Assembly (NCBI GenBank): GCA_050298595.1 | Contig: JBNKUM010000026.1 | Location: 1-58,550 of the forward strand | Origin: Gammaproteobacteria bacterium | GTDB lineage: Bacteria; Pseudomonadota; Gammaproteobacteria; GCA-001735895 | Direction of reading: 5' to 3' | Length of the DNA stretch: 58,550 nucleotides | Shown here: positions 2,515 through 23,746 of the stretch, piece after piece | Position numbering within the stretch: position 1 is the first letter of the stretch | Layout: every line of letters starts with the position of its first letter | Notes under the pieces: model-generated | Database searches by the model: none | What the model was told of the DNA's origin: nothing | What the model saw: only the letters and a program-made list of their open reading frames with translations | Made by a program: the position numbers and the translations under genes

Positions 2515-2691
2515 CCAAATAGCAGTCATTTTAGAAATAATTATGTGCTTCCATAGTTGCATAGCGGCTTTTCTCAGGTTCGCAAAGGAGAGAAAGAACG
2601 ACCTTACCGTATCCACTACGATTGCCAATTGCCACCACCCTGTTACACTTCATGCCAAAATAACCTTTATAAAATCGGGAGTACTCAGTCT

Positions 2692-6228: not shown

Positions 6229-6367
6229 ATTGAAAGAAAAATCGGATATAAAAGCAGCCGTTTAGATGATTGGTTCTAGCTATATGCAAACGATGATATT
6301 GATAACGGTCAATTCTCAAATGGCATCAGTTCCATGGGGGAATCACAGAGATAGTGTAAAGGTGCTA

Positions 6368-8383
6368 ATGGAAAACAAATTTGGTGCATACCAGATATCT
6401 GAAATTGGTTGTGTTTGGATGGTCATTGTTTTTTTTATCATTGTTCCGTCTAAAAGTCATTGTGCAACCCTTGATGCATTTAAATTAACGGGTGTAGAGG
6501 GTTCAATCAGGCTGGGATATTCATTTACCGAAACAGATCTTACTCAGGTCGGAGGTACTGATATCAAAGAAAAGAGAAGTGGCATGGAGCAGGAATTCAA
6601 TATCAACGCGCAAGCTTACGTGTTTCATCCGAATCTATTAGAAATGGAACTGGGTGCGGGCTTTCTGGCTGGCCAGGATAAACATGAAAGCAACTCTGGC
6701 ACCTATGATAGCGAGAGTGAGTATTATGATTTCAGCGGGCGCTTTAATTTTTTGAAGAACAAACCGTATCCAGTAAGTTTATATTATGTCAAAAGTAGTC
6801 CGAAGCAGGCAGTAGGTGTGGCAGATAGTCTAAATATTAAATCAGAATTATATGGGCTGTCATCGTATCTTAGGTCACCTCTAGTAAACAGCCCTGTCAC
6901 ATTAAGATTTGATCATACCCAGAGTAAGGGGGAAAGCTCGTTATCGGTTGTCGATGACAGCAGTGATTCCCTGTTTTTGGGTATAGCTACAAACATAGGA
7001 AATGTTGGTAACGGGAGTATTGGCGTGAATAAAATATCGAAAACGTCGGGCAGTGGCAGTCATAACCTGCCTTTGCAGGTGTCCACAAATGACACTGAGT
7101 CTATAGATTGGAATGGTAAAGTCGCATTAGGTAGCGAGCGAAACCTCAGCATAAGCAATCACCTTCTTCTAAGTAGCAGCGAGCAAAATGTCGCTCCCAG
7201 TAGAGATCGGCTTACATTTTATAACCATATAGACTGGAAAATTGATGATGCCACTGAGACTTACAATACTTACAATTTTTCAAAAAATGAATATGACAAG
7301 GTGGAGTCTAAAAACCAGAATCTTGTTATCGGCTCAGTCCATCGATATGGAGAATGGATGACTTTTAGTGCATCTGTTGATACAGAAAATGAGGTAAATG
7401 ACGGCTTTAAAAGATCAAGTTCCAGTTTGAATGGTAGCGCTATAGCACAAATACAGGTAACTGACCGCTGGGCATCTTCACTTGGTTATTCAGCATTTTT
7501 CAGATCCAATAGTCAGTCAACTAATGAGTTGACTATCAGCGCTTTTGATGAAGCTCATACGTTTAGCGGTATCTCTTCCATTACACTGACACATGAATAT
7601 GTTATCTCCGGTAGTGTAAGCGTAAGCAATGAAACTCACTCACAGGATTATGTAGAAAATATTGACTATATTGTCATTACCGTGGGCTCGGAGACCAGAC
7701 TGGAGAGATTGATCTCTGGAAATATTGCTGATGGACAGACCGTATTAATCAGCTATGAATATGAAGCAGGTGGTACGTTTGACTTTGATGAAATTTATCA
7801 ATCTTTTAATATCCGCTATTCTTTAGACCGGCGCTATAATTTTTCGCTATTTTACTCGACCAATAAACAGATATACCAATCAGGTATACCAGTGCACTCA
7901 ATGAAATCTGTGCAGAATTACCGCGTGGGTATGGATGCACAGGTTCCTATTAATAAAACTGCAGATTTTGGTTGGAGGTTGGAATTCGAGAGACGTAATG
8001 AAGACCTAAATCCATTTACTCGCAGCTCTTTTGATCTTAATCTAAATTCATCGTTACCGTTTAACGCGGCATTTTTGAGCGTGAATACAGGGTATCAACA
8101 GGTAGACAATGAATTATCACCCAATGACATTCGTGAAACCTATTTATCGACCAATGTTTCTGCCAGGACTAGTCTGGGGGGGAGAGCAAGTTTTGAGTGG
8201 ATCTATAAAATAGACAAGGGGAGAGATACACCAAAGAACTCAAGCGACGCCAAGTTACGTTACGAATGGAAGAGAGGGCGCCTGGATTTTTCATTATCCG
8301 CCAGGCATACGAAAGAAGAGCAAGGTATTGCATCACGCGAAAACTCAATCGTCGAAGCAGCTCTAAGAAGGGATTTTAGATGA
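6368..8383 (+). CDS. Outer-membrane beta-barrel (porin-cytochrome conduit or export channel candidate)
   Basis: Signal-peptide-like segment, long alternating amphipathic beta strands rich in Y/F/S/N, C-terminal ..LRRDFR. Start moved to ATG 6368. Confidence 0.7.
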   Translation: MENKFGAYQISEIGCVWMVIVFFIIVPSKSHCATLDAFKLTGVEGSIRLGYSFTETDLTQVGGTDIKEKRSGMEQEFNINAQAYVFHPNLLEMELGAGFLAGQDKHESNSGTYDSESEYYDFSGRFNFLKNKPYPVSLYYVKSSPKQAVGVADSLNIKSELYGLSSYLRSPLVNSPVTLRFDHTQSKGESSLSVVDDSSDSLFLGIATNIGNVGNGSIGVNKISKTSGSGSHNLPLQVSTNDTESIDWNGKVALGSERNLSISNHLLLSSSEQNVAPSRDRLTFYNHIDWKIDDATETYNTYNFSKNEYDKVESKNQNLVIGSVHRYGEWMTFSASVDTENEVNDGFKRSSSSLNGSAIAQIQVTDRWASSLGYSAFFRSNSQSTNELTISAFDEAHTFSGISSITLTHEYVISGSVSVSNETHSQDYVENIDYIVITVGSETRLERLISGNIADGQTVLISYEYEAGGTFDFDEIYQSFNIRYSLDRRYNFSLFYSTNKQIYQSGIPVHSMKSVQNYRVGMDAQVPINKTADFGWRLEFERRNEDLNPFTRSSFDLNLNSSLPFNAAFLSVNTGYQQVDNELSPNDIRETYLSTNVSARTSLGGRASFEWIYKIDKGRDTPKNSSDAKLRYEWKRGRLDFSLSARHTKEEQGIASRENSIVEAALRRDFR

Positions 8384-9432
8384 GCCAGAGAAAAATTAAT
8401 TCTCTGTTGACTTGTTATATGCTGTTTGCTGTTTCGATACTACTTTGTTCCTGTGCAGGAAGCACTCAACCCAATGAAATTAACAATAAAAATGTCAGCA
8501 TAATATGGCCGCCGCCACCATCTAAACCTCGTATAGAGTATTTGGGCACGGTATCAAGCCCACAGGATCTAGAGATAAAAAGCGGATTTATGGGATTTCT
8601 AAAGGATCTGGCGTTTGGTGAGGAGGATAACGGTATGGTCCTCCCGATGGCGGCGATTTCGAATCAGTTTGGACAACTGTTTGTGGCAGATAGCGGAAAA
8701 AAAATAATACACAGGTTTGACAAGCTAAACGAAAAATATACCCCGATAAAAAGAGAGGGTGATAAGAAGTTTGCTTCACCGGTAGCTATGGCAACTGATA
8801 AAGCCGGAAATGTTTACGTAGTGGATTCTGATCTCGCAAGGGTTTTTGTGGTAGCGGTTAATGCAGACTACGCCGGTCAATTAGCGCTGGATGGCAACTT
8901 TATCAGACCCACTGGAATCGCTATAGATAAAGATAGTGGACAGATCTATGTTGTAGATACCGGAATACATGCTGTATACATCTTTAATAAGGATAATTCT
9001 TTAGTAAAAAAGTTCGGTACTCGCGGCACAGGAGATGGCGAATTTAATTTCCCTACCTATATATGGCAAAACCTTGAAGGCAGGTATCTCGTCACCGACA
9101 GTCTAAATTTTCGTATTCAAATATTTGATCGCTATGGTCGATACCTTTCGCAGTTTGGCAGTGCTGGAAATGCCACCGGTGACCTCGCCAGACCTAAAGG
9201 TGTAGCAGAAGATAGCCATGGGCATGTGTATGTCACAGATTCTCTATTCCATAATATACAGGTATTCGACGAATCTGGAGCATTCCTGTTGGATTTTGGT
9301 GTGCAAGGAACCAGTCCTGGTGAATTCTGGCTTCCTGTGGGGATTTTTATTAGTCAGGACGATAAGATATATGTCGCGGACTCTTATAATCATCGTATTC
9401 AGATGTTTCGATATATTGGTAAAGACTTATGA
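8380..9432 (+). CDS. NHL-repeat beta-propeller lipoprotein
   Basis: Lipobox LLCSC; WPPPPSKPRIEYL; GEFNFPT, DLARPKGVAEDSHGHVYVTDS and GEFWLPVGI repeats; ATGA overlaps at both ends. Confidence 0.85.
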   Translation: MSQRKINSLLTCYMLFAVSILLCSCAGSTQPNEINNKNVSIIWPPPPSKPRIEYLGTVSSPQDLEIKSGFMGFLKDLAFGEEDNGMVLPMAAISNQFGQLFVADSGKKIIHRFDKLNEKYTPIKREGDKKFASPVAMATDKAGNVYVVDSDLARVFVVAVNADYAGQLALDGNFIRPTGIAIDKDSGQIYVVDTGIHAVYIFNKDNSLVKKFGTRGTGDGEFNFPTYIWQNLEGRYLVTDSLNFRIQIFDRYGRYLSQFGSAGNATGDLARPKGVAEDSHGHVYVTDSLFHNIQVFDESGAFLLDFGVQGTSPGEFWLPVGIFISQDDKIYVADSYNHRIQMFRYIGKDL

Positions 9433-11123
9433 ATACCAGATGGCAAATATTTTATCTGATAATTGTATTTTTATTTACATTGTCTGATGCATATTCGGGT
9501 ATAGCGGCTAGCAAGCATAATTTGTCGGTCAGTGGCAGTGGCCCCATAAGAGCTTCGGGTGAGAGTGATATATGTATCTTTTGCCACTTACCGCATAATT
9601 TCAATCCAAGACAATCGATATGGAATCATGAAAAGACCGGAGGCTATTACACCCCCTATTCAAGTTCGACGGCAATATCATTTATCGGACAGCCTAATGG
9701 CACATCTGTTCTATGTCTGAGCTGTCATGATGGGACGATTGCGCTGGGCAATGTTATTAGCGAAGAAATGACGATTCCAATGCTGGGAGGCATAACTACT
9801 ATGCCTCAGGGGCCATCGGTTCTCGGTACAGATCTATCTGATGATCATCCAATTTCCTTCGCCTATACCTCAAGCATTGCAAACAGGAGGGATGATCTGG
9901 TTCATCCGTCAGAACTGACGGCTGCGGTTAAACTCGACAGGATGGGGCGTATGCAATGTACTTCCTGCCACGATCCACATAACGATAATAATGGAAAATT
10001 TCTCACGATGTCTAATCGTGCCGGATCACTTTGCCTGACTTGCCACAGAAATCTTAAAAACTGGATTCAGTCCTCGCATAGTACATCAGTTTCCAGGTGG
10101 GCAGGACAAGGAGTAAATCCATGGCCCGATAGTCAATGGACATCTGTGGCAGACAATGCCTGTGGAAATTGTCATAAAACGCATAACGCTGGCAAAGCGG
10201 AACGATTACTGAATTATTCTCAGGAAGAAGAGAACTGTCTGGTATGTCATAACGGTCAGCTTGCTAAGACCGATATATCAAATACATTAAGAAAGTTTTC
10301 TATACATCCGGTTCAGAAAACAACAGGGGTGCATGATCCTAAAGAAGGGGCCATTGTATCTTCGCGTCATGTAGAGTGCAGTGATTGCCATAATCCACAT
10401 GCTGTAAGTAACAGCAGTGGTTTACTGAGTGGTTCGCTAGTCGGTGTTCGAGGTGTTTCCATCGACGGGGTGGAGCTCTCATCGATTAATCATGAGTATG
10501 AATTATGTTTTCGCTGTCATAGTGATGGCTACAATAAGCCTCCATCCAGAACGCCAAGGCAAATTGAACAACTCAATGTGCGCGAGGAGTTTTTTTCAGG
10601 GAATCCTTCGTTCCACCCGATAGCAGCTGTGGGGAAAAATCAGAATGTACCAAGCCTGATTTCGCCGTATAACATAAACAGCATCATGGACTGTGGTGAT
10701 TGCCATGATAGTGACGATAGTGTGGCATCAGGTGGCAGCGGTGCGAATGGGCCGCATGGTTCTCGCTATGTCCCCATATTACAGAAAAGATATGAGACCC
10801 TGGACAATACTGTGGAAAGCTCAGCCACTTATGCGCTTTGTTATAAGTGTCATGAGCGGAGTAGTATTCTCAGTGATCAAAGCTTTAAGTCGCATCGGCT
10901 ACATATCGTAGATGAAAAAACCAGCTGTAACACATGTCATGATCCCCATGGCGTGAGTTATACACAGGGTAACTCGACGAATAACAGCAGTCTGATTAAT
11001 TTCGATATTACGATAGTAAAAGAGAATGCTATGAAAGATTTACGTTACGAATCGACAGGTCGATTTAGCGGTGTATGTTACTTAAGTTGCCATGGAAGTG
11101 ATCATTCTCCCAAAGCGTATTAA
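9429..11123 (+). CDS. Multiheme c-type cytochrome, 11 CxxCH + 1 CxxxCH, with an N-terminal OmcE-like module
   Basis: Manual motif count; signal peptide; SKHNLS..ICIFCHLPH..LCLSCHDG..GTDLSDDHPISF..CTSCHDPH..LCLTCH. Confidence 0.9.
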   Translation: MNTRWQIFYLIIVFLFTLSDAYSGIAASKHNLSVSGSGPIRASGESDICIFCHLPHNFNPRQSIWNHEKTGGYYTPYSSSTAISFIGQPNGTSVLCLSCHDGTIALGNVISEEMTIPMLGGITTMPQGPSVLGTDLSDDHPISFAYTSSIANRRDDLVHPSELTAAVKLDRMGRMQCTSCHDPHNDNNGKFLTMSNRAGSLCLTCHRNLKNWIQSSHSTSVSRWAGQGVNPWPDSQWTSVADNACGNCHKTHNAGKAERLLNYSQEEENCLVCHNGQLAKTDISNTLRKFSIHPVQKTTGVHDPKEGAIVSSRHVECSDCHNPHAVSNSSGLLSGSLVGVRGVSIDGVELSSINHEYELCFRCHSDGYNKPPSRTPRQIEQLNVREEFFSGNPSFHPIAAVGKNQNVPSLISPYNINSIMDCGDCHDSDDSVASGGSGANGPHGSRYVPILQKRYETLDNTVESSATYALCYKCHERSSILSDQSFKSHRLHIVDEKTSCNTCHDPHGVSYTQGNSTNNSSLINFDITIVKENAMKDLRYESTGRFSGVCYLSCHGSDHSPKAY

Positions 11124-11266: not shown

Positions 11267-12331
11267 ATGCAAAACGATAATATGAACGTATGTGGATTAA
11301 ATACAAAAATAAAAAAAATATTAATATTCTTTGCATTTGGTATATCGATCACAATAAAAATACTTTGTTCATCATCGTACGCAGCAGCAACAAAAATGAG
11401 TGGAGATTTGCAGCAAGAGAAAAGCAGGGCAGAGAGTGAGTATGAGAATTTTTACTCCCTCGTAGGAGGTTTGGAAAATAGGGGTCGGGTTAATCCTCAT
11501 TGGGATAAGACTCGGTGTAATTCCTGTCATGAAAACGGAAAAACAATTCAGGATGCTGAGATGAGTATTAAGAATAAAGAGGAGTTATGTTACAGCTGTC
11601 ATGCTGAAGATGTGGTTCATAAATATATACATCCAACTGGAATATCGGTACCAGAAGAGTTCGAGAAACGTATTGAAAAAAATTGGCCTGAAAAATTGAA
11701 TCTTAGGAGAGAGGGGGAAATAACATGCTATACCTGCCATGATGTGCTGGATCAATGCCTTTCTGGTCGATCATACATGTCCAGAGCTAATCCAAAATTT
11801 CTAAAAGGTGCGCCATATGCTAAGCGTTATGATATTTGTTATAAGTGTCATGATTCATCAAAATATAGAAAGATGAATTCACATGAGCAGATAGATGAGA
11901 GCGGGAATCTGAAGCTGAATAAATGTCGTTTATGCCATATTGTTAAAGACGAAGGGTCAGTTAAAAAAGGTATCAGGCGTGATCTGAGTAAATATCCATT
12001 ACTGAAAAAACTGGAAAATGATCGCAATCTACTTTGTTTGCGTTGCCACAAAAAAATTGATCATCCAACAAGTGCGTTCAAATTCACATCAAGCAACAAG
12101 TATAGGCATTTCATAAAAATCACTGAAGAAAAAAAGGCAACACTAGAGCGGATGATTAAAAAAACAGGCATCGTTTTACCGCTGGAACCGGATACTGACA
12201 GAATTAACTGTGCTACTTGCCATCAGCCACATCAGCCGGGAGTATTTGAGCAAGGCGCACAGAGTAGGGACATACTTTCCCCAAAGAGAATGAGGGTAGC
12301 TAATATTTGTGATCAATGTCATGAAAAATAA
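11267..12331 (+). CDS. Octaheme c-type cytochrome
   Basis: Eight CxxCH (CNSCH, CYSCH, CYTCH, CYKCH, CRLCH, CLRCH, CATCH, CDQCH); N-terminal signal-like segment; start uncertain. Confidence 0.85.
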   Translation: MQNDNMNVCGLNTKIKKILIFFAFGISITIKILCSSSYAAATKMSGDLQQEKSRAESEYENFYSLVGGLENRGRVNPHWDKTRCNSCHENGKTIQDAEMSIKNKEELCYSCHAEDVVHKYIHPTGISVPEEFEKRIEKNWPEKLNLRREGEITCYTCHDVLDQCLSGRSYMSRANPKFLKGAPYAKRYDICYKCHDSSKYRKMNSHEQIDESGNLKLNKCRLCHIVKDEGSVKKGIRRDLSKYPLLKKLENDRNLLCLRCHKKIDHPTSAFKFTSSNKYRHFIKITEEKKATLERMIKKTGIVLPLEPDTDRINCATCHQPHQPGVFEQGAQSRDILSPKRMRVANICDQCHEK

Positions 12332-12360: not shown

Positions 12361-13503
12361 ATGAATAACTCAAAAACGACTATCACAATTAAAAAAATAA
12401 CGGGTATATCTTTGTTGCTGATTCTTTCTGTCTACTATTTAGAAGGATACACAGCAGATTTTGCGGATGATGAAGCCTGTTTGATGTGCCACAAATACAT
12501 TCGTATGGCACGCATTACGGAAGAGGGGGTTTTTCGTTCATATTATGTGCCTCCGAGCACATTTGCCAAGACGGTTCACAGAAACGTCCCATGTAGAGAT
12601 TGTCATAGCTATATTACGCAACTTCCCCATGAAAAAGTAGAGGAGGGAGTAAAGTGTGACAAGGAGTGCCACTCTAAGAATAACCCTGCAACCGGAAAAC
12701 CATTTAGTCATAAGGCTATATCCGATCTTTACTCTGAGAGTGTTCATGCAAGAGTCAAGAATGCAACCGGCCTTGATGCTGATAAGCCCTATTGTATAAC
12801 CTGTCATACAAACCCTGTCTATAACCCTTCAGAAGAGGTCCCTCCAAAGGAGATACTGGATCGCTGTGCGCTGTGTCATGAGAAGAGGGAGTTCGTTAAA
12901 CAGTGGTATTTTCACACCAGTAGAAGAGTTCTGGATGTTAAACGATCTGGTCAGGAAATTGTAGAAATTTGTACTCGCTGTCATGCAAACCAGGAATTAA
13001 TAGAGCGACACAAAAAAGCACATGATGCTGCAGGAGACCCGATGGGTGATAAGTTTCCAATAGCTGCAACGTCTTATAAGAATAGCTTTCATGGAAAGGT
13101 GACAAAGTACGGTATGGTCGGTGCAGCTACTTGCCTGGATTGTCATGCAGACAGTGATCAATATTACAAGAGTGTACATAAAATACTGCCATCAAGGAAT
13201 CCTGATTCTCCAATAAGTAAAGAAAATAGATTAAATACATGCCAGAAGTGCCATACAGGTGCCGATCAGAAATTTGATGTGGTCGATCCACATCCTTCGT
13301 TTGAAGAAGAACGTAACCCAATCTTACATGCGGGTGAAAAGATCTATAGCGTATTTGGAAATATCATAGTCTTTTGTTTGATTGGATTATCCTTGTTTGA
13401 GACTTTTGGAAGGCGTCGAGATGGAGCCGGATGGCGGCTTCGTATGGGTTCAACATGGTGGAATAAAAGTCGCAGAAAAAGGGATAGAAATATACCGAAG
13501 TAA
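12361..13503 (+). CDS. CbcA-like membrane-anchored multiheme cytochrome c (7 CxxCH + CxxxCH), copy 1
   Basis: Signal peptide, heme motifs, C-terminal TM helix VFGNIIVFCLIGLSLF and a basic tail; followed by a cytochrome b gene. Confidence 0.8.
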   Translation: MNNSKTTITIKKITGISLLLILSVYYLEGYTADFADDEACLMCHKYIRMARITEEGVFRSYYVPPSTFAKTVHRNVPCRDCHSYITQLPHEKVEEGVKCDKECHSKNNPATGKPFSHKAISDLYSESVHARVKNATGLDADKPYCITCHTNPVYNPSEEVPPKEILDRCALCHEKREFVKQWYFHTSRRVLDVKRSGQEIVEICTRCHANQELIERHKKAHDAAGDPMGDKFPIAATSYKNSFHGKVTKYGMVGAATCLDCHADSDQYYKSVHKILPSRNPDSPISKENRLNTCQKCHTGADQKFDVVDPHPSFEEERNPILHAGEKIYSVFGNIIVFCLIGLSLFETFGRRRDGAGWRLRMGSTWWNKSRRKRDRNIPK

Positions 13504-13574
13504 ATAAGAATTTAACTCAAACAACCAGGCAAAGATTTTAAATGTTGCCTGGCAATAAGAAGGTAGGAAGCTAA

Positions 13575-14528
13575 ATGAAGTTATCAGAAGAAGCAGAAAA
13601 GGTATTGCAGTTGTCCATGAGGCAACAGAACATTAAAGAGTTTGACAGGACTGAAATAGAAAGGCTAATCGGCCTTATCCCTGATGACAGGGTGTTTCTC
13701 TACAAGAATGTAATGTCCAATCCTATTGGGGATCTGCCACGGTATTCAATCCATATCAGAGTTCAACATCTACTTACATTTACTACTTTCCTGTTATTGG
13801 CTTTTACAGGTCTTCCCGTTCATTTTTTCGATGCGGTTTGGGCTAAACCATTCAGTCAATTACTTGGGGGAATAGATGTTACCCGAGTGATACACAGAAC
13901 ATTGGCTGCAATCATGATTGTAGGGATGGTTTACCATGTAATCACACTTGTTCTAGGAACGACGTTAAAACTCTTAAAGGGTACTTTCGATATCAGACGA
14001 ACAATACTTCCAAGATGGAAAGATCTTAAGGATATGCGCGAAGACATTCTGTATTTTTCTGGGAGGTCTCAAATGAGACCCGAAATGGATAAATTTATGT
14101 ATAAGCAAAAAATACACTATTTCGCTGCAGTATTTGGAAGTTGTGTGATGGTTGCGAGTGGGTCTTCCTTTCTTTATCCAGATATCTGGGCAAGCTATCT
14201 TCCTTATGGGTGGGCGCTTTATATGCAAAATATCATGCGTCTCGCACATTCGCATGAGGCCTTATTGGCACTGGTCGTCATTGCCTTCTGGCATTGGTAT
14301 AACGTTCACCTTGCACCTGGTCGTTTTCCAATGCAATGGACATTTCTATCGGGGAAAATTACACGTGAACATCAAATTGAGGAACACTTTCTTGAATATA
14401 TACGAAACCTGGTAGAGCTTCCTGAGGAAAGATCGATCCTTTTGGAACAATTAGCTGAGATGGAAAAGTATACGGATGGGGGGATGGGGCAGTATCGACA
14501 AACACCAGTTGCTTTAACGGAAGGGTAA
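13575..14528 (+). CDS. Di-heme cytochrome b membrane subunit (FdnI/HyaC/CbcB-like), copy 1
   Basis: RVQHLL..LLAFTGLP, IHRTLA, KFMYKQKIHYF and AHSHEALLALVVIAFWHWYNVH; four TM helices with His ligands. Confidence 0.85.
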   Translation: MKLSEEAEKVLQLSMRQQNIKEFDRTEIERLIGLIPDDRVFLYKNVMSNPIGDLPRYSIHIRVQHLLTFTTFLLLAFTGLPVHFFDAVWAKPFSQLLGGIDVTRVIHRTLAAIMIVGMVYHVITLVLGTTLKLLKGTFDIRRTILPRWKDLKDMREDILYFSGRSQMRPEMDKFMYKQKIHYFAAVFGSCVMVASGSSFLYPDIWASYLPYGWALYMQNIMRLAHSHEALLALVVIAFWHWYNVHLAPGRFPMQWTFLSGKITREHQIEEHFLEYIRNLVELPEERSILLEQLAEMEKYTDGGMGQYRQTPVALTEG

Positions 14529-14719
14529 ATTCCTTTGGTCAAAAAAAAATATCTTTGGCGTCAAGTTCTGTCTTATGCATCTCTACTTTTTGTGTTGAGC
14601 TGGACAATTTATTTTATCTATGTGTACGTAATGATTCTGTTTTGATGCAAGGCAATGCGAGTCTTTGTTATTACACCGAAAAGAAGTACAAATATTAAAG
14701 GGGTTGGAGTAGTTATTTT

Positions 14720-15751
14720 ATGCATGAAGTAACATCTTACGGAAATATTATTATTGCAACAGCAGTGGTGGTGATCGTTCTGTTTATGATCATGCTTGTT
14801 GTTGTAATTGATCACAAGGCGAGACTTAAAGAAAAAAAACGTGATGATATCTTTCATATATCAGGAGTAAAACGAAATCACCCTATCTGGTCGTATCTTA
14901 TTGGGTCATTTTTATTGATCGTAATATTAGGTGTGGCCATCCAGCTGATAGCTACCGTTTTGAATTATATTCCTGTGAACGAAAATAATAAACCTTCTGA
15001 GCTACTTGCTTCGCTAAAAAAGAAAAGCGTATTAGAAGATGCGAGGCATTTTCATAATCCAGCAAATACACTGGCTTTGGAAGGAAAAAAGAGTGTTTGT
15101 TATTACTGCCATGGTGACTTTCCCCACTTTCAGAAACGTATGATTCGTACCTTACTTAACATGCATACTCAATTCATTGGATGTATGACCTGTCATGCTA
15201 ATCCGGATAAGGCGGATGAAAACTTGATAACCCTAAAGTGGTTAAACTTTTCAGGGATAGAGGTTGAAGGCGGGCATTTCGGTGTTGATTATGATAAGGA
15301 TAGTGGTTACCTCGTCGATACCGATGACTTTTTCTCAAAGATAGTACCTTATCTAAACAATGATGGTAATGAACAATTGCTTGAGATTACTGAAGATGAT
15401 CCCATTGCGATAGATTTCGTCAAGGTACAGTCAACCTTACAGGGACAGAATAGAGAAGCGGTTAAAAAGAGTCTTCATCGTATGGTGCGCCCAAAAGGAC
15501 GGTTCTGTACGCGTTGTCACACCGAAAGAGCGAAAAGTTTCGTTCCATTTGAACAGCTGGGTTTCTCGGAAGAGAGAATTTACGACCTTACCAATTTGAA
15601 CATTATCGGGTTGGTAGAGAAGTATAAAGAGTTCTATATGCCGAATTTAATGAACAGGGAGATTGAGCCAATAAAAATAAATTTAAATGGTATTCCGGCT
15701 GAGAAAGAAAGGATATATCAAACTTTGCCTCAGCTTAAAAATGATGGCTAA
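14720..15751 (+). CDS. Membrane-anchored triheme cytochrome c, copy 1
   Basis: Two N-terminal TM helices; CYYCH, CMTCH, CTRCH; paralog of 18824-19735. Confidence 0.8.
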   Translation: MHEVTSYGNIIIATAVVVIVLFMIMLVVVIDHKARLKEKKRDDIFHISGVKRNHPIWSYLIGSFLLIVILGVAIQLIATVLNYIPVNENNKPSELLASLKKKSVLEDARHFHNPANTLALEGKKSVCYYCHGDFPHFQKRMIRTLLNMHTQFIGCMTCHANPDKADENLITLKWLNFSGIEVEGGHFGVDYDKDSGYLVDTDDFFSKIVPYLNNDGNEQLLEITEDDPIAIDFVKVQSTLQGQNREAVKKSLHRMVRPKGRFCTRCHTERAKSFVPFEQLGFSEERIYDLTNLNIIGLVEKYKEFYMPNLMNREIEPIKINLNGIPAEKERIYQTLPQLKNDG

Positions 15752-15906
15752 CCGCAGAGCAGAAAAACTGCTAAAGCTATAATGCTTCCTTATTCTCAGA
15801 GTTGGTTATATCAAGTCGACTAGTATAGTTAGTTTAATCAAATTATTAAGTATAGAAAGGATCTTATGGAGAGGATATATATGAAAACAAAGGAAATTAT
15901 CGTGCG

Positions 15907-16821
15907 ATGAATTTCCGTTTAGATCAGGTCGAAAATATTAATGCTACAGGCGAAAGCAGGTCAAGTGTACGCAAGACGTATTACGCGCTAATACTTTCAA
16001 TATTTCCCGGTTTGGGTCAGCACTACTCGGGTCATCTTATTCGAGGCATCTCATTATTTATCTTTCTGATAATTATTTCGTGGGTTGCGGCAATTATTTT
16101 TATGTATACGACATCTACGATCATCAGTGTGATCCTGCTGTCTATTCCTGTAGTTGTGTATGTATTAATAGGAATAGATGCTGTTTATTGTTCACTGAAC
16201 CAGAAAGAAATATACGTATTAAAGTGGTATAACAAAAATTGGATTTACATAGCAGTCATCATTGTTTTATTTTCCACAATAAATCCATTGATGGATACTC
16301 TGATAGGGAAACACATTGTTCGAGCATACCTTGTCTATACGAATAGTATGGCACCAACTGTATTAAAACATGATGTCATTGTTATAAACAAACTATCTGA
16401 ACCAGAAAGGAATGATATCGTATTAATAGAAATGAGCCAGGAGAATACAAAAGGTTCGATGTCAACAGTTATTGATAAGCAGATTTTAAGAAGAATTATT
16501 GCTATTCAAGGGGATGAACTCGAAATTCTAGGAAAGAAAATATATATCAATGGGGAAATATTCGAAAGTTCATTTGCCAGTTACGGTGAACAGCTTAGCC
16601 CCAACTATTATGTAACAAATGAATATCACTATGGCCCGATAGATGTACCCGAAAATACCTTCTTTGTATTGTCTGACGCAAGGCAATACAGTTTTGATAG
16701 TCGAGTGTTTGGGTTTGTTCCAAGAGCGCAAATCACAGGAATAGCGACAAAGATATTCTGGTCGTGGAATCGCGACGAAGGCCATTTTATATGGGGAAGA
16801 ACTGCAAAGAAAATAAATTGA
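15907..16821 (+). CDS. Signal peptidase I (S26) homologue with extra N-terminal TM helices and an atypical active site
   Basis: FPGLGQHY TM region; box B TNSMAPT; box D ILRRIIAIQGD where KR is expected; box E LSDARQYSFDSRVFG. Confidence 0.85.
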   Translation: MNFRLDQVENINATGESRSSVRKTYYALILSIFPGLGQHYSGHLIRGISLFIFLIIISWVAAIIFMYTTSTIISVILLSIPVVVYVLIGIDAVYCSLNQKEIYVLKWYNKNWIYIAVIIVLFSTINPLMDTLIGKHIVRAYLVYTNSMAPTVLKHDVIVINKLSEPERNDIVLIEMSQENTKGSMSTVIDKQILRRIIAIQGDELEILGKKIYINGEIFESSFASYGEQLSPNYYVTNEYHYGPIDVPENTFFVLSDARQYSFDSRVFGFVPRAQITGIATKIFWSWNRDEGHFIWGRTAKKIN

Positions 16822-16932: not shown

Positions 16933-17991
16933 ATGATGAATAAAATTAAAACCGTTCATGCCAGTATACTGCTGGTGCTGTTACTTATAACAACAAGTGC
17001 ATTGGCTGCTGATGAGCTTAATTGCGTCCTGTGTCACAAATTCAAAGGCTTGAGCAGAATTGATGAAGACGGAAACTTCAGGTTGTTCTATATCAATCAA
17101 AAATTGTATAAAAAGGGGCCGCATAAACGCATCCATTGCAAAGATTGTCATCAGGATATTGATAAAATTCCACACGATCCAGCCAGCAAAGTAGATTGCA
17201 CAGTTCAATGTCATCTTACTGAACCTTCTGGTAACGAGAAGTTTTCACACAAACCGGTTGCTGAAATACTCGAGAAAAGTATCCACGGAGAAAAAATTAA
17301 AGAGTCATCCAGTGTAGAACATCTAGAGGATTATCCATACTGCACAGATTGTCATGATCAACCATTGTATAGACCGTTGTCGTTTTTTAAAGGGCATGAG
17401 GCGGGTGTAACGGAGCGAGGTTTAAGTCGATGCAAGACCTGTCATAGAACCGGTGATTTCGCGGAAGATTTCTATGCTCATGTGACCTCCAGATTACAGA
17501 AGCTACGTGTAGGCAAGGAAATAGTAGGGGTGTGTGCAAAATGTCATGCAGACAAAAAATTTCAGCAAAGACATGGACTTCAAATCAATGTGGTTTCTTC
17601 ATATTGGGACACCTTCCATGGTAAAGCCACCTATTTTGGATCAGATGCCACACCTGACTGTATTGATTGCCATGTAGTGAGTGGTGAAAATGTACATTCA
17701 ATAGAAGGAAAGAAATCTGATACATCGGCTGTTAATAAAAATAATGTGGCCGCCACATGTAAAGCTTCTGAATGTCACTCAAATGCGGGTGATTATATCT
17801 CCAGTTATCAGGTTCACACGGATTATGAAGATCCAGATAAATATCCTATGCAATATTATCTATTGAAATTCTTTAAGTACCTGATGGCAGGGGTGATGTA
17901 TTTCTTTATCACAGTGATATTTCTTGAATTACTTAGACGCCTGTTCCCCAGCTATTCAATTTTTAAAAACAAGTTATCCGACTTACATTAG
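16933..17991 (+). CDS. CbcA-like membrane-anchored multiheme cytochrome c (6 CxxCH + CxxxCH + CxxxxCH), copy 2
   Basis: Signal peptide ..SALA; heme motifs; C-terminal TM helix; aligns by eye with 12361-13503. Confidence 0.8.
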   Translation: MMNKIKTVHASILLVLLLITTSALAADELNCVLCHKFKGLSRIDEDGNFRLFYINQKLYKKGPHKRIHCKDCHQDIDKIPHDPASKVDCTVQCHLTEPSGNEKFSHKPVAEILEKSIHGEKIKESSSVEHLEDYPYCTDCHDQPLYRPLSFFKGHEAGVTERGLSRCKTCHRTGDFAEDFYAHVTSRLQKLRVGKEIVGVCAKCHADKKFQQRHGLQINVVSSYWDTFHGKATYFGSDATPDCIDCHVVSGENVHSIEGKKSDTSAVNKNNVAATCKASECHSNAGDYISSYQVHTDYEDPDKYPMQYYLLKFFKYLMAGVMYFFITVIFLELLRRLFPSYSIFKNKLSDLH

Positions 17992-18012
17992 ATCCCGAGA
18001 AAGAGCTAAGGC

Positions 18013-18816
18013 ATGAGAAAATATAAAAAAATCGTATATCGAAATGAAAAACGCTATTTCTATCGATTTTCATTAATGCAAAGAGTACAGCATGTAGTTC
18101 TGTTTACAACGGTAATAATACTATCACTTACAGGATTCCCGTTACGCTACTTCGATCAGCCCTGGGCAAAACCACTGTATGAATTTTTTGGTGGGATACA
18201 TATAGCTCCATGGATACACCGTATAACTGGATTGATTTTACTTGGTTTGTTTTTGTTTCACACTGGGTACTGGCTCTATCTGTTCTTCAAATACAGGGTT
18301 GGAAGACTGATGCTCGAAAAGAGACTGTCAGTAATTAATTTTATTCGAGAGTTTTTCTCTATGGAGATGGTGCCCAACAAAAAGGATTTTTTTGATTTTA
18401 TTGCCATGTGGAAATACCTGTTGTTCATAAGCAGCGAGCGCCCTCAGTACGACCGTATGTCGTGGAAGGAAAAGTTTGACTATTTCGCGCCCTACTGGGG
18501 TATTCCAATTCTTGGGCCTGCGGGATTAGCTCTGTGGTACAGGGATGAGTTTACACAGTACGTACCAGGTATTGTTTTGAATGCATTTTACATTATGCAT
18601 ACTGACGAAGCACTGCTGGCTGTCATATTTATATTCTTTGTGCACTGGTACAACGTCCACTATTCACCAGAAAAATTTCCTATGGCTACGGTATTTTTAA
18701 CTGGCTATCTTAGTGAAAGTGAGATGATTCATGAACACTATGACGAATATACACGCATCATGAAAGAAGAAGGCCTTGAAAATGAAATTCATCCTCAACA
18801 TAAAAACGAGGCGTAG
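18013..18816 (+). CDS. Di-heme cytochrome b membrane subunit, copy 2
   Basis: RFSLMQRVQHVV..LTGFP, WIHRITG, WKEKFDYFA and MHTDEALLAVIFIFFVHWYNVH. Confidence 0.85.
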   Translation: MRKYKKIVYRNEKRYFYRFSLMQRVQHVVLFTTVIILSLTGFPLRYFDQPWAKPLYEFFGGIHIAPWIHRITGLILLGLFLFHTGYWLYLFFKYRVGRLMLEKRLSVINFIREFFSMEMVPNKKDFFDFIAMWKYLLFISSERPQYDRMSWKEKFDYFAPYWGIPILGPAGLALWYRDEFTQYVPGIVLNAFYIMHTDEALLAVIFIFFVHWYNVHYSPEKFPMATVFLTGYLSESEMIHEHYDEYTRIMKEEGLENEIHPQHKNEA

Positions 18817-18823
18817 CTAATAA

Positions 18824-19735
18824 ATGTTACATGTCATAAGAAAAATAATCAGGAATCTATATGTTATCGTCCTGATGATATTTACCCTCTGGTATGGTTA
18901 TATTCTGTATCCGATTATATTTGAACATTCTGCTGATCAGTCTAGTGCCGAAGTCGAGGATGATGACGTGGATGTATTTTTTGGTCAGGGAACAACCGAA
19001 GAAGAGAAGGAGTTTCTAAAATCACTAAAACAACAGCAAAATACCGAAACAACCGATCTCGGCTATATGGTTGTAGAAGAGCAATATGTGAAAGGACATT
19101 TCCATCATGTGGGGATGAAAGTTGAAACCGATTCATTCAGTGTATGTATCAGATGCCATGGTGCCGTCCCTCATGATATGGCAAAGTCAATTCGTGCTTT
19201 TCTGAATATGCACGCATTTTACATGGCCTGTGAAACCTGTCATGTACGTCCGATTGATGGTGAACCCAATATGGAATTTCGTTGGTATGATCAGGCAACG
19301 GGAATAACCATAGAAAATCCTGCGGGGTTGAATGCGCAGGATGAATCCATGTATGGAAACTACTCAGCAAAAATAGCACCGGGAAGAATGGATGAAAATG
19401 GGAAATTCAAATTAATCAATGGGACTAAAGAGCTTGAATTTGCAAAAAGATATCAAAGTGATGAGTCTAGATTGAATGATACTCAGAAATCAAAAATGAA
19501 AAAGATAATTCACAGGAAAGTCAATGAACAACCACTGCTTTGCGATGGGTGTCATACCACTGAAAATCAGCCATATTTACCATTTGAGCTATTGGGGTAT
19601 CCCAAACGACGACTGTACGAACTTACCAGTACAGAGGTTGTAGGTATGATTAAAAAATATCAACAATTTTATATTCCCAATATATTACATGGTGGTGAAA
19701 GCAGAAAAGAGAGTAATAAAGATCAGAACTTATGA
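18824..19735 (+). CDS. Membrane-anchored triheme cytochrome c, copy 2
   Basis: N-terminal TM helix; CIRCH, CETCH, CDGCH; HFHH..RAFLNMH..KYQQFYIPN shared with copy 1. Confidence 0.8.
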   Translation: MLHVIRKIIRNLYVIVLMIFTLWYGYILYPIIFEHSADQSSAEVEDDDVDVFFGQGTTEEEKEFLKSLKQQQNTETTDLGYMVVEEQYVKGHFHHVGMKVETDSFSVCIRCHGAVPHDMAKSIRAFLNMHAFYMACETCHVRPIDGEPNMEFRWYDQATGITIENPAGLNAQDESMYGNYSAKIAPGRMDENGKFKLINGTKELEFAKRYQSDESRLNDTQKSKMKKIIHRKVNEQPLLCDGCHTTENQPYLPFELLGYPKRRLYELTSTEVVGMIKKYQQFYIPNILHGGESRKESNKDQNL

Positions 19736-20712
19736 CTGTCAGAGTGAAGTCTTTAATGTATGAAGTAACAGGTGTAAGGAAGGTACTTAATAAGTACCTT
19801 TTTCTGCTGTTTATATTGTCAGGTCACATACAGGCGGCAGAGCCAGAGGTACCGCTCGTAAACTGCCAGAAGGTTATGGTTTTAGACGGCTCTCCAACTG
19901 GTCATATGAAAATGCCAACCGATGTTGCAGTGGATGATGAAGGGAAGATCTATGTTGTTGATAGCGCTAATCATCAGATACTGGTTTTTGCAGCGGATGG
20001 AAAGTATTTAATGGCTTTTGGTTCACAGGGGAAGCCTGGCGAGGTATTAAGTTATCCAGTAGGGATTACAACAACTTCGGATGGGCTTGTGCTGGTGGCT
20101 GATCGTGGTAATCAAAAGATCAGGATTTTTAATTCAGATGGTAGCTTGCAGAAAACTTTTGATACAAAGATTGAGGAGGGAAGATATACGCCTGTCGATG
20201 TGGCGGTTGACAGCGAAGGAAAGCGAATATTTGTTACAGCTTCAAAACCGTTTCACCAGATTATGGTGCTGGATGCGAATGGAAATCTGATATCGCGATG
20301 GGGTCAGGCGGGAAGTAATAAAGGTGAATTTCGCTTTCCGGCAACTATAGCTGTAAGCCCTGAAGATGATGAGATTTATCTGGTCGATGTTCTAAATACT
20401 CGAGTTCAGGCATTTGATATGAACGGAAGCTTTTTAGTTACCGTTGGTTCGTGGGGAGTTACCCCCGGAAAGTTATTTCGACCTAAGGGCGTAGCTGTTA
20501 TGAAAGATAATAGCATACTGGTAAGTGATAGTTATCTTGGTGTTGTACAGTTATATGATAGTGATACACGTTTTCGGGCAGTGCTGGGAGTTGATGGTAA
20601 AATTGCTCGTTTCAATACTCCAACAGGCCTGCAAGTGGATGATCGTAATAGAGTTTATATTGTAGAGACCATGGCTGATAGAGTAACTGTTTGTCAGTTG
20701 TCCCCATTATAA
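19732..20712 (+). CDS. NHL-repeat beta-propeller protein (exported, no lipobox)
   Basis: MPTDVAVDDEGKIYVVDSANHQI, GEFRFPATIAV and LFRPKGVAV; signal-like FLLFILSGHIQA. Confidence 0.85.
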   Translation: MTVRVKSLMYEVTGVRKVLNKYLFLLFILSGHIQAAEPEVPLVNCQKVMVLDGSPTGHMKMPTDVAVDDEGKIYVVDSANHQILVFAADGKYLMAFGSQGKPGEVLSYPVGITTTSDGLVLVADRGNQKIRIFNSDGSLQKTFDTKIEEGRYTPVDVAVDSEGKRIFVTASKPFHQIMVLDANGNLISRWGQAGSNKGEFRFPATIAVSPEDDEIYLVDVLNTRVQAFDMNGSFLVTVGSWGVTPGKLFRPKGVAVMKDNSILVSDSYLGVVQLYDSDTRFRAVLGVDGKIARFNTPTGLQVDDRNRVYIVETMADRVTVCQLSPL

Positions 20713-20713
20713 A

Positions 20714-23263
20714 ATGACTAACAAACGACGTATTTCAATATTACTGAGCTTGTTGTTAAAGCTTACTTTTGTTGTTTCGATTTTATTTTTACTAACGCCA
20801 AATGCACAGGCAGCACGCGTGGTAGAAGAAAAGCGAGAGTGCGCTACCTGCCATATCGCATGGATAGCCGATTTCAAAAAAAAAGAGGTCACAACTCTGG
20901 TTCCTTATAATCCACGTCCAAAGGTTGCAACAGGACGTCAGGATGTCGTCAGTACGGAGGCGATGTGTTTCTCCTGCCATGATGGATACGTCATGGATTC
21001 ACGTTTTCTATGGCAGGATGGAGGACATACCCATCCTGTAGGTGTGATCCCCTCAGATAGGGTCGACATACCTAAGGATGAAGACAAAACAATCTTCCCA
21101 CTCAACGATGATGGCAAAGTGTACTGTGGAACCTGTCACTCGGCGCACGGCGTCGAATGGGGAAGTAAACTGTCGCCAGTCTTCCTGCGTGCAGAGAATA
21201 TCAATTCATCCCTTTGTATGACCTGTCATGTTGATAGAAAAGATCAGCACGCTAATCATCCTCTGAACCGTAAAGTAAAAAATAATAACAAGAAGCTGGA
21301 ACAGATGGGTTCAAAATTTAAAGACACAGATCAAGTTATTTGCCAGAGTTGTCATAAGGTTCATGGAGCCAAAGAAGAAAAGCTATTAGTGGAGAAGAAT
21401 GAAAAATCGCAGTTGTGTGAGATTTGTCATCAGGATATTAAAAATGTAGATACTACGGGCTCTGGCCAACACTATAGTCACCCAGTTGACGTTATTCCAA
21501 AGGAAGTAAAAGTACCCAGTATATTTACTGAATCCGGATCAAAATTCGGACCTGACAAAGAGGTTATCTGTCAATCCTGCCATACGCCACATTTTGCACC
21601 ACCGGAAAATAAATTGTTGGTTCTGGATAGCGAACACCTTAAAGAGGGGATTTGTGTCAACTGCCACGAGAAGCAACGCAGCTTGCTTAACACGGGGCAT
21701 AACCTGCTCAGTGGCGATACGAAAGTAATGTCAGATTCTGAATTACCCAGTAGCAATTTAGGGGTCTGCGGTGTTTGCCATAACATCCACTCAGGAAAGG
21801 GGCCAAAGATGTGGGCGCGCGAATTACAGCCCGGTGGAGACAGAGTGGCTTCATTATGCCTCAGTTGCCACAGCGACGGTGCACCTGCTGAAAAATTCAC
21901 AGTTGGTGAATATAGCCATCCGGTGGGGAAATCGCTCAGTTCGGCAATCGACCCAGGTGTTCTCCCGCTCTTCACCTCGTCCGGGGTAAAAACCCATTCC
22001 ACCAAATACGGACGGGTTACCTGCCCAACATGCCATGATGTGCATGGCTCCGTCAGTCACATTAATCATTCATCATCAGCAGGAAGCAAACAGCCTGGAG
22101 GTGGTAAATATTTACGTAAAGGAGAGGATAATCTTTTGTTGCTGTGTGAGACATGCCATGCTGATAAATGGTCTATAGCCGAAACAAAACATGATTTGGA
22201 TATTAAAAAGGGTGACCCCATGCCTCTGGGTATCTGCGGCAACTGTCATCAGGTTCACAACGGTAATGGGCCACGTATGTGGGCAAGAGATGATGGTCTT
22301 AAAAAGAATGATTATGGTGCGCTGTGTAAAAGTTGTCATAAAAAAGGTGGCCTGGCAGAAAAGAAAACAACGGGATCCCATTCACATCCAATCGGTGTTT
22401 CAATTGAAAAAGCAGGTATAGATGTAACTCCCGAGGGATGGGTTTCCATCGAAGGGGGAGAAAAAACCACCAATGCAGCTGTGCTGCCATTGTATGATGA
22501 AAAAGAGGGTGTATCGCATAATAAAAATGGCGCTGTTTCCTGTCCTACTTGCCATGATCCTCATCGATGGACAAGCAAAAAGACAGATAAAAAAATGAGC
22601 GGCAAAAAGACGGATGAGGGTGATGCGACAAACAGTTTTTTACGTATTCCCACAGCACCTGATGGTGAATTGTGCGTCACCTGCCATACAGCAAAAGCCC
22701 CGATTCGTGCTACGGATCATGATCTTTCCGTCACTGTGCCAAAAGCGAAGAATGCCTTAGGTGAAGAACTGCATCAATCGGGTATATGTGGTCAATGCCA
22801 CGCCATCCACAATGCTGTGCAGGACCTTGCGCTATGGGGGCGACTGCCTGGACAGGCAGACAATGCTCCGGAAATGCTCTGTCGAAGTTGCCATGATGCA
22901 GGTGAAATCGCAGAGGCAAAGGTACCTAAGAAGGCATCTCATCCTGGTTACGTAATGGCCTGGGACGGAAGTCTGCGAGATGTTGATAAAAAGGGAATAA
23001 CCCATCTACCGGTCTTCTCCGAAAGTGGCCGTCAGGCTCTGACGGGGTATATTAGCTGCCCGACCTGTCATAATGTGCATCAATGGCGTCCCGATACAAA
23101 CGAGGCAGGAAGTGGTAAAAACGAGGAAGGAGACGTCTTTAGCAGCTTTCTTCGAACAGATTCTTCTGAAGGAATATTATGTGCGGATTGTCACGACCTG
23201 GATTCGATTTTTCGCTATAAATATTTCCACGGTATCGATTTCAAGAGCCAAAAAGAGAATTGA
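20714..23263 (+). CDS. 20-heme c-type cytochrome with tandem modules
   Basis: Twenty CxxCH by manual count; signal peptide ..PNAQA; repeated HP(V/I)G..C..CH..H..LR..LC..CH units. Confidence 0.9.
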   Translation: MTNKRRISILLSLLLKLTFVVSILFLLTPNAQAARVVEEKRECATCHIAWIADFKKKEVTTLVPYNPRPKVATGRQDVVSTEAMCFSCHDGYVMDSRFLWQDGGHTHPVGVIPSDRVDIPKDEDKTIFPLNDDGKVYCGTCHSAHGVEWGSKLSPVFLRAENINSSLCMTCHVDRKDQHANHPLNRKVKNNNKKLEQMGSKFKDTDQVICQSCHKVHGAKEEKLLVEKNEKSQLCEICHQDIKNVDTTGSGQHYSHPVDVIPKEVKVPSIFTESGSKFGPDKEVICQSCHTPHFAPPENKLLVLDSEHLKEGICVNCHEKQRSLLNTGHNLLSGDTKVMSDSELPSSNLGVCGVCHNIHSGKGPKMWARELQPGGDRVASLCLSCHSDGAPAEKFTVGEYSHPVGKSLSSAIDPGVLPLFTSSGVKTHSTKYGRVTCPTCHDVHGSVSHINHSSSAGSKQPGGGKYLRKGEDNLLLLCETCHADKWSIAETKHDLDIKKGDPMPLGICGNCHQVHNGNGPRMWARDDGLKKNDYGALCKSCHKKGGLAEKKTTGSHSHPIGVSIEKAGIDVTPEGWVSIEGGEKTTNAAVLPLYDEKEGVSHNKNGAVSCPTCHDPHRWTSKKTDKKMSGKKTDEGDATNSFLRIPTAPDGELCVTCHTAKAPIRATDHDLSVTVPKAKNALGEELHQSGICGQCHAIHNAVQDLALWGRLPGQADNAPEMLCRSCHDAGEIAEAKVPKKASHPGYVMAWDGSLRDVDKKGITHLPVFSESGRQALTGYISCPTCHNVHQWRPDTNEAGSGKNEEGDVFSSFLRTDSSEGILCADCHDLDSIFRYKYFHGIDFKSQKEN

Positions 23264-23344: not shown

Positions 23345-23746
23345 ACCACTACAGAGGACGCAGAGAGCACGGAGGTTGTTTTTTAGAATTTAGAAAGTTA
23401 TTAGTGTACTGTCCTAAACTGTATGTAGATTATAGCGAGACGGGAAATAGTCATATGCAAGGCGTCATCCGCAGGGAATGGCATGCCCTTTTCAAGGATG
23501 AAAACGCAGCAGATGGCTGTTTCCCGTCTCGCCCGAAGGGAAGCCCCCAAATCCCCCAATCCGGCGTTGCAGTTCTTGACAAGGGAGGCGCCATTGCCTG
23601 CGAACTGCGTCTTGTCTTGGGAAATTTGGGGGCTTCTATAATCTACATACAGTTTAGGACAGTACACTAGTGTTTCAAAAACAGTCTATTGATCTTTAGG
23701 ATGGCTACTACAAGCTATCCTGTTTCTCTCTGTGTCCTCTGTGGTT
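23345..23746. repeat. Imperfect inverted repeat pair (acagaggac(g/a)cagagag type) enclosing the MITE
   Basis: accactacagaggacgcagagagcacggagg (~23345-23375) versus cctgtttctctctgtgtcctctgtggtt (~23719-23746). Confidence 0.5.
23402..23669. mobile_element. MITE with perfect 34-bp terminal inverted repeats and TA termini (IS630/Tc1-like target preference)
   Basis: tagtgtactgtcctaaactgtatgtagattatag (23402-23435) is the exact reverse complement of 23636-23669; the interior is also imperfectly palindromic; no transposase. Confidence 0.85.

Follow-up and report, generated by a model that had tools for sequence, protein, structure and literature searches.

What does a gene annotated as signal peptidase I do inside a cytochrome cluster when its catalytic base is missing? 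The export, heme loading and assembly of very large multiheme cytochromes and filaments are largely an open question. In the window (the whole 58,550-nt stretch of gammaproteobacterial contig JBNKUM010000026.1 analysed here), a 19-kb same-strand cytochrome cluster includes an S26 gene on the forward strand (15907-16821) that encodes a 304-residue protein, and databases annotate members of its family as ‘signal peptidase I’. A first-pass annotation had described this open reading frame as an S26 homologue that keeps the nucleophile serine, has arginine in place of the catalytic lysine and carries an altered box E, a description confirmed here by profiles, alignments and superposition. It had also offered two roles, a pseudo-peptidase that acts as a chaperone and a maturase of altered specificity, which fared differently.

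The protein scored 102.7 bits against PF10502 (cut-off 22.9) and 110.5 bits against TIGR02227 (cut-off 47). Its AlphaFold model, built from a 62-row alignment, has a pLDDT of 82.6 and superposes on E. coli LepB (1T7D) with a Z-score of 18.0 and an rmsd of 2.6 Å over 148 residues, model residues 137-304 matching chain residues 80-323; superposition with SipA gave a Z-score of 16.8. Residues 22-134 (15970-16308) make up a putative membrane domain with a PGLGQxY helical hairpin and three transmembrane helices (44-67, 71-97 and 111-134) predicted from secondary structure and hydropathy. The S26 domain follows at residues 137-304 (16315-16818), and positive-inside loops would place it in the periplasm. 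The start codon overlaps the TGA (ATGA) of a 14-codon open reading frame (15866-15910) with a purine-rich stretch upstream, and translation of the S26 gene is possibly coupled to it.

At the active site, S147 (codon AGT, 16345-16347) of the motif TNSMAP corresponds to LepB Ser90 and aligns opposite the alanine of the SpsB nucleophile mutant 4WVG. R195 (codon AGA, 16489-16491) of ILRRII occupies the position of LepB Lys145, and aligned to the catalytic lysine of four solved signal peptidases: those of E. faecalis (4ME8, VAKRLI) and B. anthracis (4NV4, YVKRII), S. aureus SpsB (4WVH, YVKRVI) and E. coli LepB (9NLO, DYIKRAVG). Box E (SDARQYSFDSR, 16672-16704), with the motif LSDARQYSFDSR at S256, has S256 (codon TCT at 16672) for Gly272 and A258 for Asn274, and keeps D257, R259, D264, S265 and R266 as well as S262, the equivalent of LepB Ser278. 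The window copy thus has the fold and profile of an active S26A peptidase with Ser90 and Ser278, and lacks Lys145 and Gly272. In LepB, Lys145 is the deprotonated base and Gly272 is free of a side chain to make room for it, according to the available text of PMC4049620, PMC12984324 and PMC12067869; a side chain of whatever kind at position 272 collides with Lys145, a constraint released in the dead homologue SipA (PMC4049620, available text). The first-pass annotation had asked whether the nearby lysine of DKQIL could stand in for the base. This residue, K191 (16477-16479), lies ahead of strand 192-199, four residues before R195; its site is lysine in two of 137 family members and has changed 28 times by parsimony, so it is no family-wide substitute base. 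A sequencing error at R195 can be excluded because an independently deposited contig (L001; 54 differences in 17,738 positions, one of them in the 915 nt of the S26 gene) has the same Arg codon, and arginine is found in 43 of 62 aligned sequences.

We pooled 178 family sequences, of which 137 were non-redundant at 90%. This set omits two sequences near-identical to the query (L001 and P0001), the frameshifted L036, three fragments (L056, L057 and L059), three non-members (P0062, L060 and L061) and P0066, whose box B alignment is doubtful. The family is a discrete group: four of 1.84 billion representatives score 228-301 bits, the next scores 143 bits, and the family is monophyletic with respect to six of its next relatives (support 100/100; 44-row tree). 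Had all homologues retained the Lys-Arg pair, R195 would have been a private mutation or an error, as the first-pass annotation recognized; they do not. Arginine is the commonest residue at the base site (80 of 137), followed by Lys (32), Ser (9), Gly (8), Asn (5) and one each of Val, Ala and Tyr. The nucleophile site has Ser in 108 members, Gly in 18, Ala in seven and Thr in four, while at the Ser278 site Gly (64 members) and Ser (63) are about equally common. Only 29 of the 137 keep both Ser and Lys, and 23 keep Ser, Lys, Gly and Ser together; this family-wide loss of the base supports the pseudo-peptidase reading. Several subclades lack both Ser and Lys, and a betaproteobacterial clade that adjoins CcsA/ResB retains both. 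Among the 80 Arg members, the nucleophile is Ser in 69 and Ala, Gly or Thr in 11.

M148, R196, D257 and S265 are invariant across the 137 members. Parsimony on a 105-row tree, inferred with the motif columns removed, counted nine changes at the Ser90 site, 10 at Lys145, 12 at Gly272 and 16 at Ser278, and 0-2 at each of M148, R196, D257, R259, D264, S265 and R266. The Gly272 site bears a side chain in 63 of 86 non-Lys members versus one of 19 Lys members, a phylogenetically non-independent comparison in which Fisher's p overstates the coupling; only two to three phylogenetically independent pairs exist for the coupling of Ser with Arg or Lys and of Lys with Gly272. A single loss of lysine was rejected (AU p 0.00048). 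Members with Lys branch from among members with Arg, which points either to repeated loss of lysine or to an ancestral arginine with lysine regained. The arginine is encoded by all six codons across the family, a sign that the residue has been kept while its codon drifted. In the wider PGLG-hairpin S26 group (P0067-P0212), the nucleophile is Ala in 31 of 146 sequences and the base is not Lys in 35 of 146; by alignment, Ser and Lys are both present in 77 of 146 more distant PGLG-type representatives. That group probably holds many pseudo-peptidases that match the S26 profile. Since it is often degenerate, the loss of the dyad could have a cause other than a job specific to cytochromes. A search of the ESM Atlas returned S26 clusters alone.

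Copies without the lysine remain under purifying selection. Nei-Gojobori dN/dS (residues 22-300; non-independent pairs with dS < 1.5 and dN < 0.25) had a median of 0.105 and a maximum of 0.205 in 34 non-Lys pairs, and a median of 0.156 in 117 Ser/Lys pairs. Values were 0.03-0.08 for copies that lack both residues, including Gly/Gly and Gly/Asn types, and were similar for the membrane and periplasmic domains. These pairs exclude the window's own lineage, for which no partner was close enough; the relatives L034/L035 and L032/L038 gave 0.10 and 0.13, respectively. The reading frame is intact in all complete copies except one, on an error-rich contig (L036). Positions at which the family is conserved and the outgroup is not fall in the transmembrane helices (the Y51 site, S58, W59, A62, M66, P81, and T124, N126, P127, M129, D130 and G134), at R139 and along the C-terminal strand (K282, F284, N288 and T299). 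The cleft-lining positions M148, V152, I158, L173 and L194 remain hydrophobic, though variable, and cleft sites 141, 143, 152 and 194 each changed 14-22 times on the 105-row tree. Two cysteines near the cytoplasmic side, Cys33 (80-100%) and Cys95 (79-89%), are conserved in the family, and the window copy has Phe33.

The genes around the S26 gene, all on the forward strand, include a candidate filament protein, the UetA-like, OmcE-like tetraheme cytochrome at 4283-4966 (phmmer E 1.7e-24 to 7TFS and 1.4e-24 to 9YUQ), whose start was reassigned from 4205, the choice of the ORF caller, to an ATG at 4283 with a Shine-Dalgarno site. It is followed by an NHL beta-propeller lipoprotein (5116-6228, Pfam), a 705-residue probable outer-membrane beta-barrel (6266-8383; named from position and sequence pattern, with no Pfam match) and a second NHL beta-propeller lipoprotein (8380-9432, Pfam). 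Next, heme motifs and homology identify a UetJ-like undecaheme cytochrome (9429-11123) with an OmcE-like N-terminal domain (residues 21-207; E 1.2e-22 to 7TFS for the N-terminal 190 residues), which could be a barrel-anchored nucleator for a tetraheme filament, and heme motifs an octaheme cytochrome (11267-12331). The S26 gene itself lies between two paralogous inner-membrane modules. Module A (12361-15751) comprises a 7-heme cytochrome (12361-13503), a cytochrome b (13575-14528) and a membrane-anchored triheme protein (14720-15751); module B (16933-19735) comprises a cytochrome with six CxxCH motifs (16933-17991), a cytochrome b (18013-18816) and a triheme protein (18824-19735). A third NHL beta-propeller (19732-20712, Pfam) and a 20-heme cytochrome (20714-23263, heme motifs), the last gene of the same-strand cluster, complete the set, with a terminator-like hairpin 3′ of the latter (23697-23722). 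A promoter scan found 24 sites, fewer than the 36.9 in shuffled sequence, and is uninformative.

Further afield, a tandem OB-fold-like secreted protein is encoded upstream of the cluster (2557-3360), with homologues beside the clusters of L004, L044 and L047; shorter relatives follow the 20-heme gene in L002, L003, L032 and L038. A large type VI secretion cluster occupies 25196-56172 (TagF, TssM/L/K/J, TagH, TssA/B/C and Hcp by profile) and continues, by inspection, with ClpV, VgrG, a PAAR-like gene with a C-terminal extension and then a possible immunity gene.

By gene list, not by sequence, the window cluster shares the tetraheme, the beta-barrel (an inferred label), two NHL proteins and the undecaheme with the Uet cluster of Ca. 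Tenderia and Gallionella, as described in the available text of bioRxiv 10.1101/2022.05.06.490989 and PMC10734462; CcsAB lies nearby in loci related to the window, as in Uet. Unlike Uet as presented there, the window has no PPIase UetB, c7 trihemes UetDEG or cupredoxin UetF among its ORFs of at least 90 aa across 2557-23263, and adds the octaheme, the two cytochrome b modules, the 20-heme protein and the S26 gene. The word ‘peptidase’ occurs nowhere in the available main texts of these two reports. The cluster does not match the description of PCC3/PCC4 in the available text of PMC5566968.

A scan of GTDB found, in 48 genomes, 59 family loci (31 gammaproteobacterial, 18 betaproteobacterial and 10 other or unranked, as classed by record title). 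The carriers are sulfur- and iron-oxidising bacteria, among them Sideroxydans-, Sulfuricella- and Thiobacillus-type genomes. The contigs of L001 and L033 are labelled Chitinispirillaceae while nearly all relatives are proteobacterial, possibly through mis-binning or transfer. The tie to cytochrome clusters suggested by the window is upheld in other genomes: of 60 genes scored, 44 lie within 5 kb of an ORF carrying three or more CxxCH motifs (13 of 16 Ser/Lys copies and 31 of 44 others; raw counts with no random-gene baseline), and 40 of the 48 genomes have at least one multiheme-linked locus. No multiheme neighbour was seen in the flanks examined of the other 16 genes. Among the eight genomes without a linked locus, four (L008, L009, L012 and L026) share upstream genes on truncated contigs, one (L056) is a fragment and three (L015, L020 and L027) have long flanks and no multiheme neighbour, and are real exceptions. 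Eight unlinked full-length copies, all without an intact dyad, are second paralogues in genomes that also hold a linked copy. In four genomes (L037 and L041-L043) the sole copy recovered has Gly at the base site, and each adjoins cytochrome genes.

Gene order varies by lineage, and no one neighbour is common to all loci. The gene may lie between or beside cytochrome b modules, form tandem Ser/Arg and Gly/Gly pairs before module B, converge on CcsA/ResB with 11- and 24-heme genes (in Betaproteobacteria) or diverge from octaheme and beta-propeller genes. The tandem paralogues occur directly before module B in L005, L011 and L031, L041-L043 retaining the Gly type alone; such pairs may form a heterodimer or serve one module each. 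In L005, L011, L037 and L041-L043, two U32 peptidases, an SCP2 protein and a radical SAM gene stand upstream of the S26 gene beside the cytochrome b module, and presumably resemble the anaerobic ubiquinone genes ubiUVT. A third paralogous 6-heme/cytochrome b/triheme module follows module B in L032, L034 and L035. L019 (6302-10906) and similar betaproteobacterial loci carry a run made up of a lipoprotein-like ORF of 279 aa and genes for a protein of 580 aa, a monoheme cytochrome c and a protein of 190 aa, followed by a Ser/Lys member; the run converges on CcsA/ResB and has no Pfam match except for the cytochrome. The 580-aa neighbour was considered as a porin, matched no family and is left as a hypothetical protein. 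Cytochrome genes split by frameshifts in L003, L017 and L036 are probably assembly errors.

Several known S26 proteins offer comparisons. TraF/TrhF, suggested by the first-pass annotation, can be set aside: the protein scored 40.9 bits against TIGR02771 (cut-off 100.25), a profile search found no conjugation genes among the flanking ORFs of the window, and a plasmid collection held no full-length relative. SipW is an ER-type S26 peptidase with a His base, and His occupies the base position in none of the 137 family members. With LepB and SpsB (MEROPS S26A; 1T7D, 1B12 and 4WVG) the window protein shares the fold, the Ser position, Met91, Arg146, the Asp, Arg and DSR of box E, and membrane anchoring. 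It differs from them in Lys145 (Arg), Gly272 (Ser) and Asn274 (Ala), in its PGLG hairpin and three transmembrane helices where they have one or two, and in a restricted, cluster-linked distribution. S. pyogenes SipA (4N31; PMC4049620) likewise combines an S26 fold with no working dyad, a released Gly272 constraint and a place in a surface-structure cluster; in the available text of that report, it binds peptide, and pili do not polymerise without it. However, SipA has Asp/Gly at the dyad, one transmembrane helix, a sortase pilus locus and a Gram-positive host, whereas in the window family many members retain Ser, some have the Ser/Lys dyad intact, and the genes accompany those for heme proteins. 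Monophyly with respect to PGLG-type S26 outgroups indicates that the family represents a dyad loss independent of SipA; it would work like SipA from outside the SipA group, and falls outside the definition of an active signal peptidase I. S. aureus SpsA is another inactive paralogue without catalytic residues, but is described as dispensable, lacks both residues and has no cytochrome link, as far as the available text of PMC12445088 goes. In ANME archaea, a conserved signal peptidase gene stands beside CcmF2 and giant cytochromes (PMC9012536, available text); the likeness, which is one of gene context alone, lies in adjoining a dedicated heme lyase and giant multiheme cytochromes, and the difference in that this peptidase is archaeal and taken as active by its authors. 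Dead signal peptidase paralogues and a peptidase gene beside giant cytochromes are therefore already known. PMC9226611 mentions signal peptidase in a SignalP footnote alone, and our literature search, which covered main texts outside most subscription journals, found no description of a bacterial, cytochrome-cluster-linked, three-helix S26 family with a dispensable dyad.

The cluster's own signal peptides bear on what the protein might act upon. Cleavage sites assigned by eye, with no predictor, are AYS↓G (11-heme), ALA↓A (module B), AQA↓A (20-heme) and TFG↓G (tetraheme), small-x-Ala or similar. In the 20-24-heme family, 19 of 25 rows had a recognisable cleavage motif, each with Ala at -1; at -3, all 13 Lys-linked rows have Ala and the six non-Lys rows have Ala, Val, Ser or Thr. 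These peptides look like ordinary LepB substrates that would not require a special peptidase, which is evidence against an altered-specificity maturase. That proposal had invoked unusually long signal peptides; with the tetraheme start moved to 4283, they are merely modestly long, at about 23-40 aa by eye.

The S26 protein is likely to be non-catalytic yet functional. Its lysine has been lost and its gene kept beside cytochrome clusters, so it probably helps to build cytochromes rather than to cut them. As a complete mechanism, we propose, with a probability of roughly 0.45, that it is a catalytically dead inner-membrane maturation or assembly factor for a Uet-like multiheme-cytochrome system, its topology, inactivity, peptide binding and client being what we infer. 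The three helices would anchor the protein in the inner membrane with the S26 domain in the periplasm, where the shallow retained cleft and the family-specific membrane surface would grip the signal-peptide or N-terminal segment of the cluster's pre-cytochromes. These would be held at the membrane during heme attachment and partner assembly, with cleavage left to housekeeping LepB, much as SipA does for streptococcal pilins; the betaproteobacterial Ser/Lys members may still cut as well. We favour a holdase or assembly factor because the fold and hydrophobic cleft are retained, linkage persists across rearrangements, heme-attachment genes lie alongside, and SipA and the ANME peptidase offer precedents. 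Linkage across differing gene orders, together with CcsA/ResB adjacency, is also easier to reconcile with a general role in maturation than with a single fixed partner. Against a fully dead site stands the retention of Ser in most Arg members, more than such a site might need.

The residues that most distinguish the family are found in its membrane domain and its C-terminal strand, not in the cleft, and this pattern would fit a scaffold subunit equally well. The protein could be a non-catalytic, stoichiometric subunit of the 7-heme/cytochrome b/triheme modules, bound through its transmembrane face, with the cleft incidental; we regard this as credible, though unlikely. Besides the placement in the window, where modules A and B flank the gene, all 13 window-clade copies that could be located adjoin module A, module B or both, and six further Gly-type copies directly precede module B. 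The polar transmembrane residues S58, T124, N126 and D130, with W59, M66 and P81, are 93-100% conserved in the family and at most 32% in the outgroup. However, no module is found in the flanks of Chromatiales-type loci (L010, L022, L025, L028-L030 and L052) or of L004 and L006, and in betaproteobacterial loci some 9-10 kb separate the gene from the module, which is on the opposite strand. Among proteins of 567-2000 aa, no fusion of the family domain was found at E 1e-20 or better, which is weak evidence against a subunit. Co-folding of the S26 protein with module A (cytochrome b, triheme and 7-heme C-terminus) gave 0.40, 0.00 and 0.00 in three runs, evidence neither way.

A more elaborate and quite improbable proposal is a dedicated signal-peptide trap, a chaperone derived from a dead signal peptidase, that would time the maturation of the giant (11-24 heme) cytochromes and prime OmcE-type nanowire assembly. 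The base would have been lost early (Lys to Arg), the protein kept for binding, and a working Ser/Lys pair would have reappeared in the betaproteobacterial lineage; regain is suggested by the arginine on branches around the Lys members and the rejection of a single loss.

The abundance of serine opposite arginine raises the question of whether a Ser-Arg pair still works, slowly or with altered specificity, as a dedicated maturase of which the betaproteobacterial Ser/Lys members would be the ordinary active versions. Serine is present in every cluster-linked Arg copy among intact loci, the arginine has outlasted synonymous drift, and the ANME peptidase (PMC9012536, available text) is a precedent for a cluster-linked enzyme. 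Three features of the family nevertheless make such an enzyme decidedly improbable: the window clade has Ser or Ala for Gly272, Ala for Asn274 and often Gly at the Ser278 site, 11 Arg members have Ala, Gly or Thr at the nucleophile site, and the substrates carry ordinary LepB sites. Arginine, with a pKa of about 13, is moreover a very poor general base and no stand-in for lysine at neutral pH; the literature searched held no Lys-to-Arg data for the signal peptidase base.

The main idea of the first-pass annotation, a SipA-like chaperone specific to polymerisation of the OmcE-like tetraheme filament, perhaps with the OmcE-like domain of the undecaheme as nucleator, is doubtful at best. It is consistent with the same-strand OmcE homologue, with an undecaheme gene within 10 kb of the S26 gene in about 18 loci and with the close structural match to SipA. 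But a stand-alone OmcE-like tetraheme was found in just two of the fetched loci (L004 and L038), a count that leaves out window-type loci since there the gene is about 11 kb upstream, outside the scored 10-kb flank. No OmcE-like gene lies in the flanks of module-B-type and Chromatiales-type loci, and we know of no requirement for such a factor by Geobacter omcE. The Uet description, in its available text, has no peptidase either. Finally, a decaying remnant, private mutation or sequencing error, to which the gene's G+C of 0.36 and faster divergence (about 50% identity versus 60-80% for its neighbours) might point, is very improbable given the prevalence of arginine across the family, frames intact in all but L036, dN/dS of about 0.1 and the same codon in L001.

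A dead signal peptidase serving as an assembly factor is known from SipA, so the surprise is limited. The S26 family, mis-annotated as ‘signal peptidase I’, is a conserved candidate accessory factor for a Uet-like electron-uptake system of chemolithotrophs. Its natural variants (Ser/Lys, Ser/Arg, Ser/Ser, Gly/Gly and Gly/Asn), found in the same setting, offer a ready-made panel for telling cutting apart from binding. Should the protein prove to be a signal-peptide trap that primes nanowire assembly, the family would be a missing part for making such wires in other hosts.
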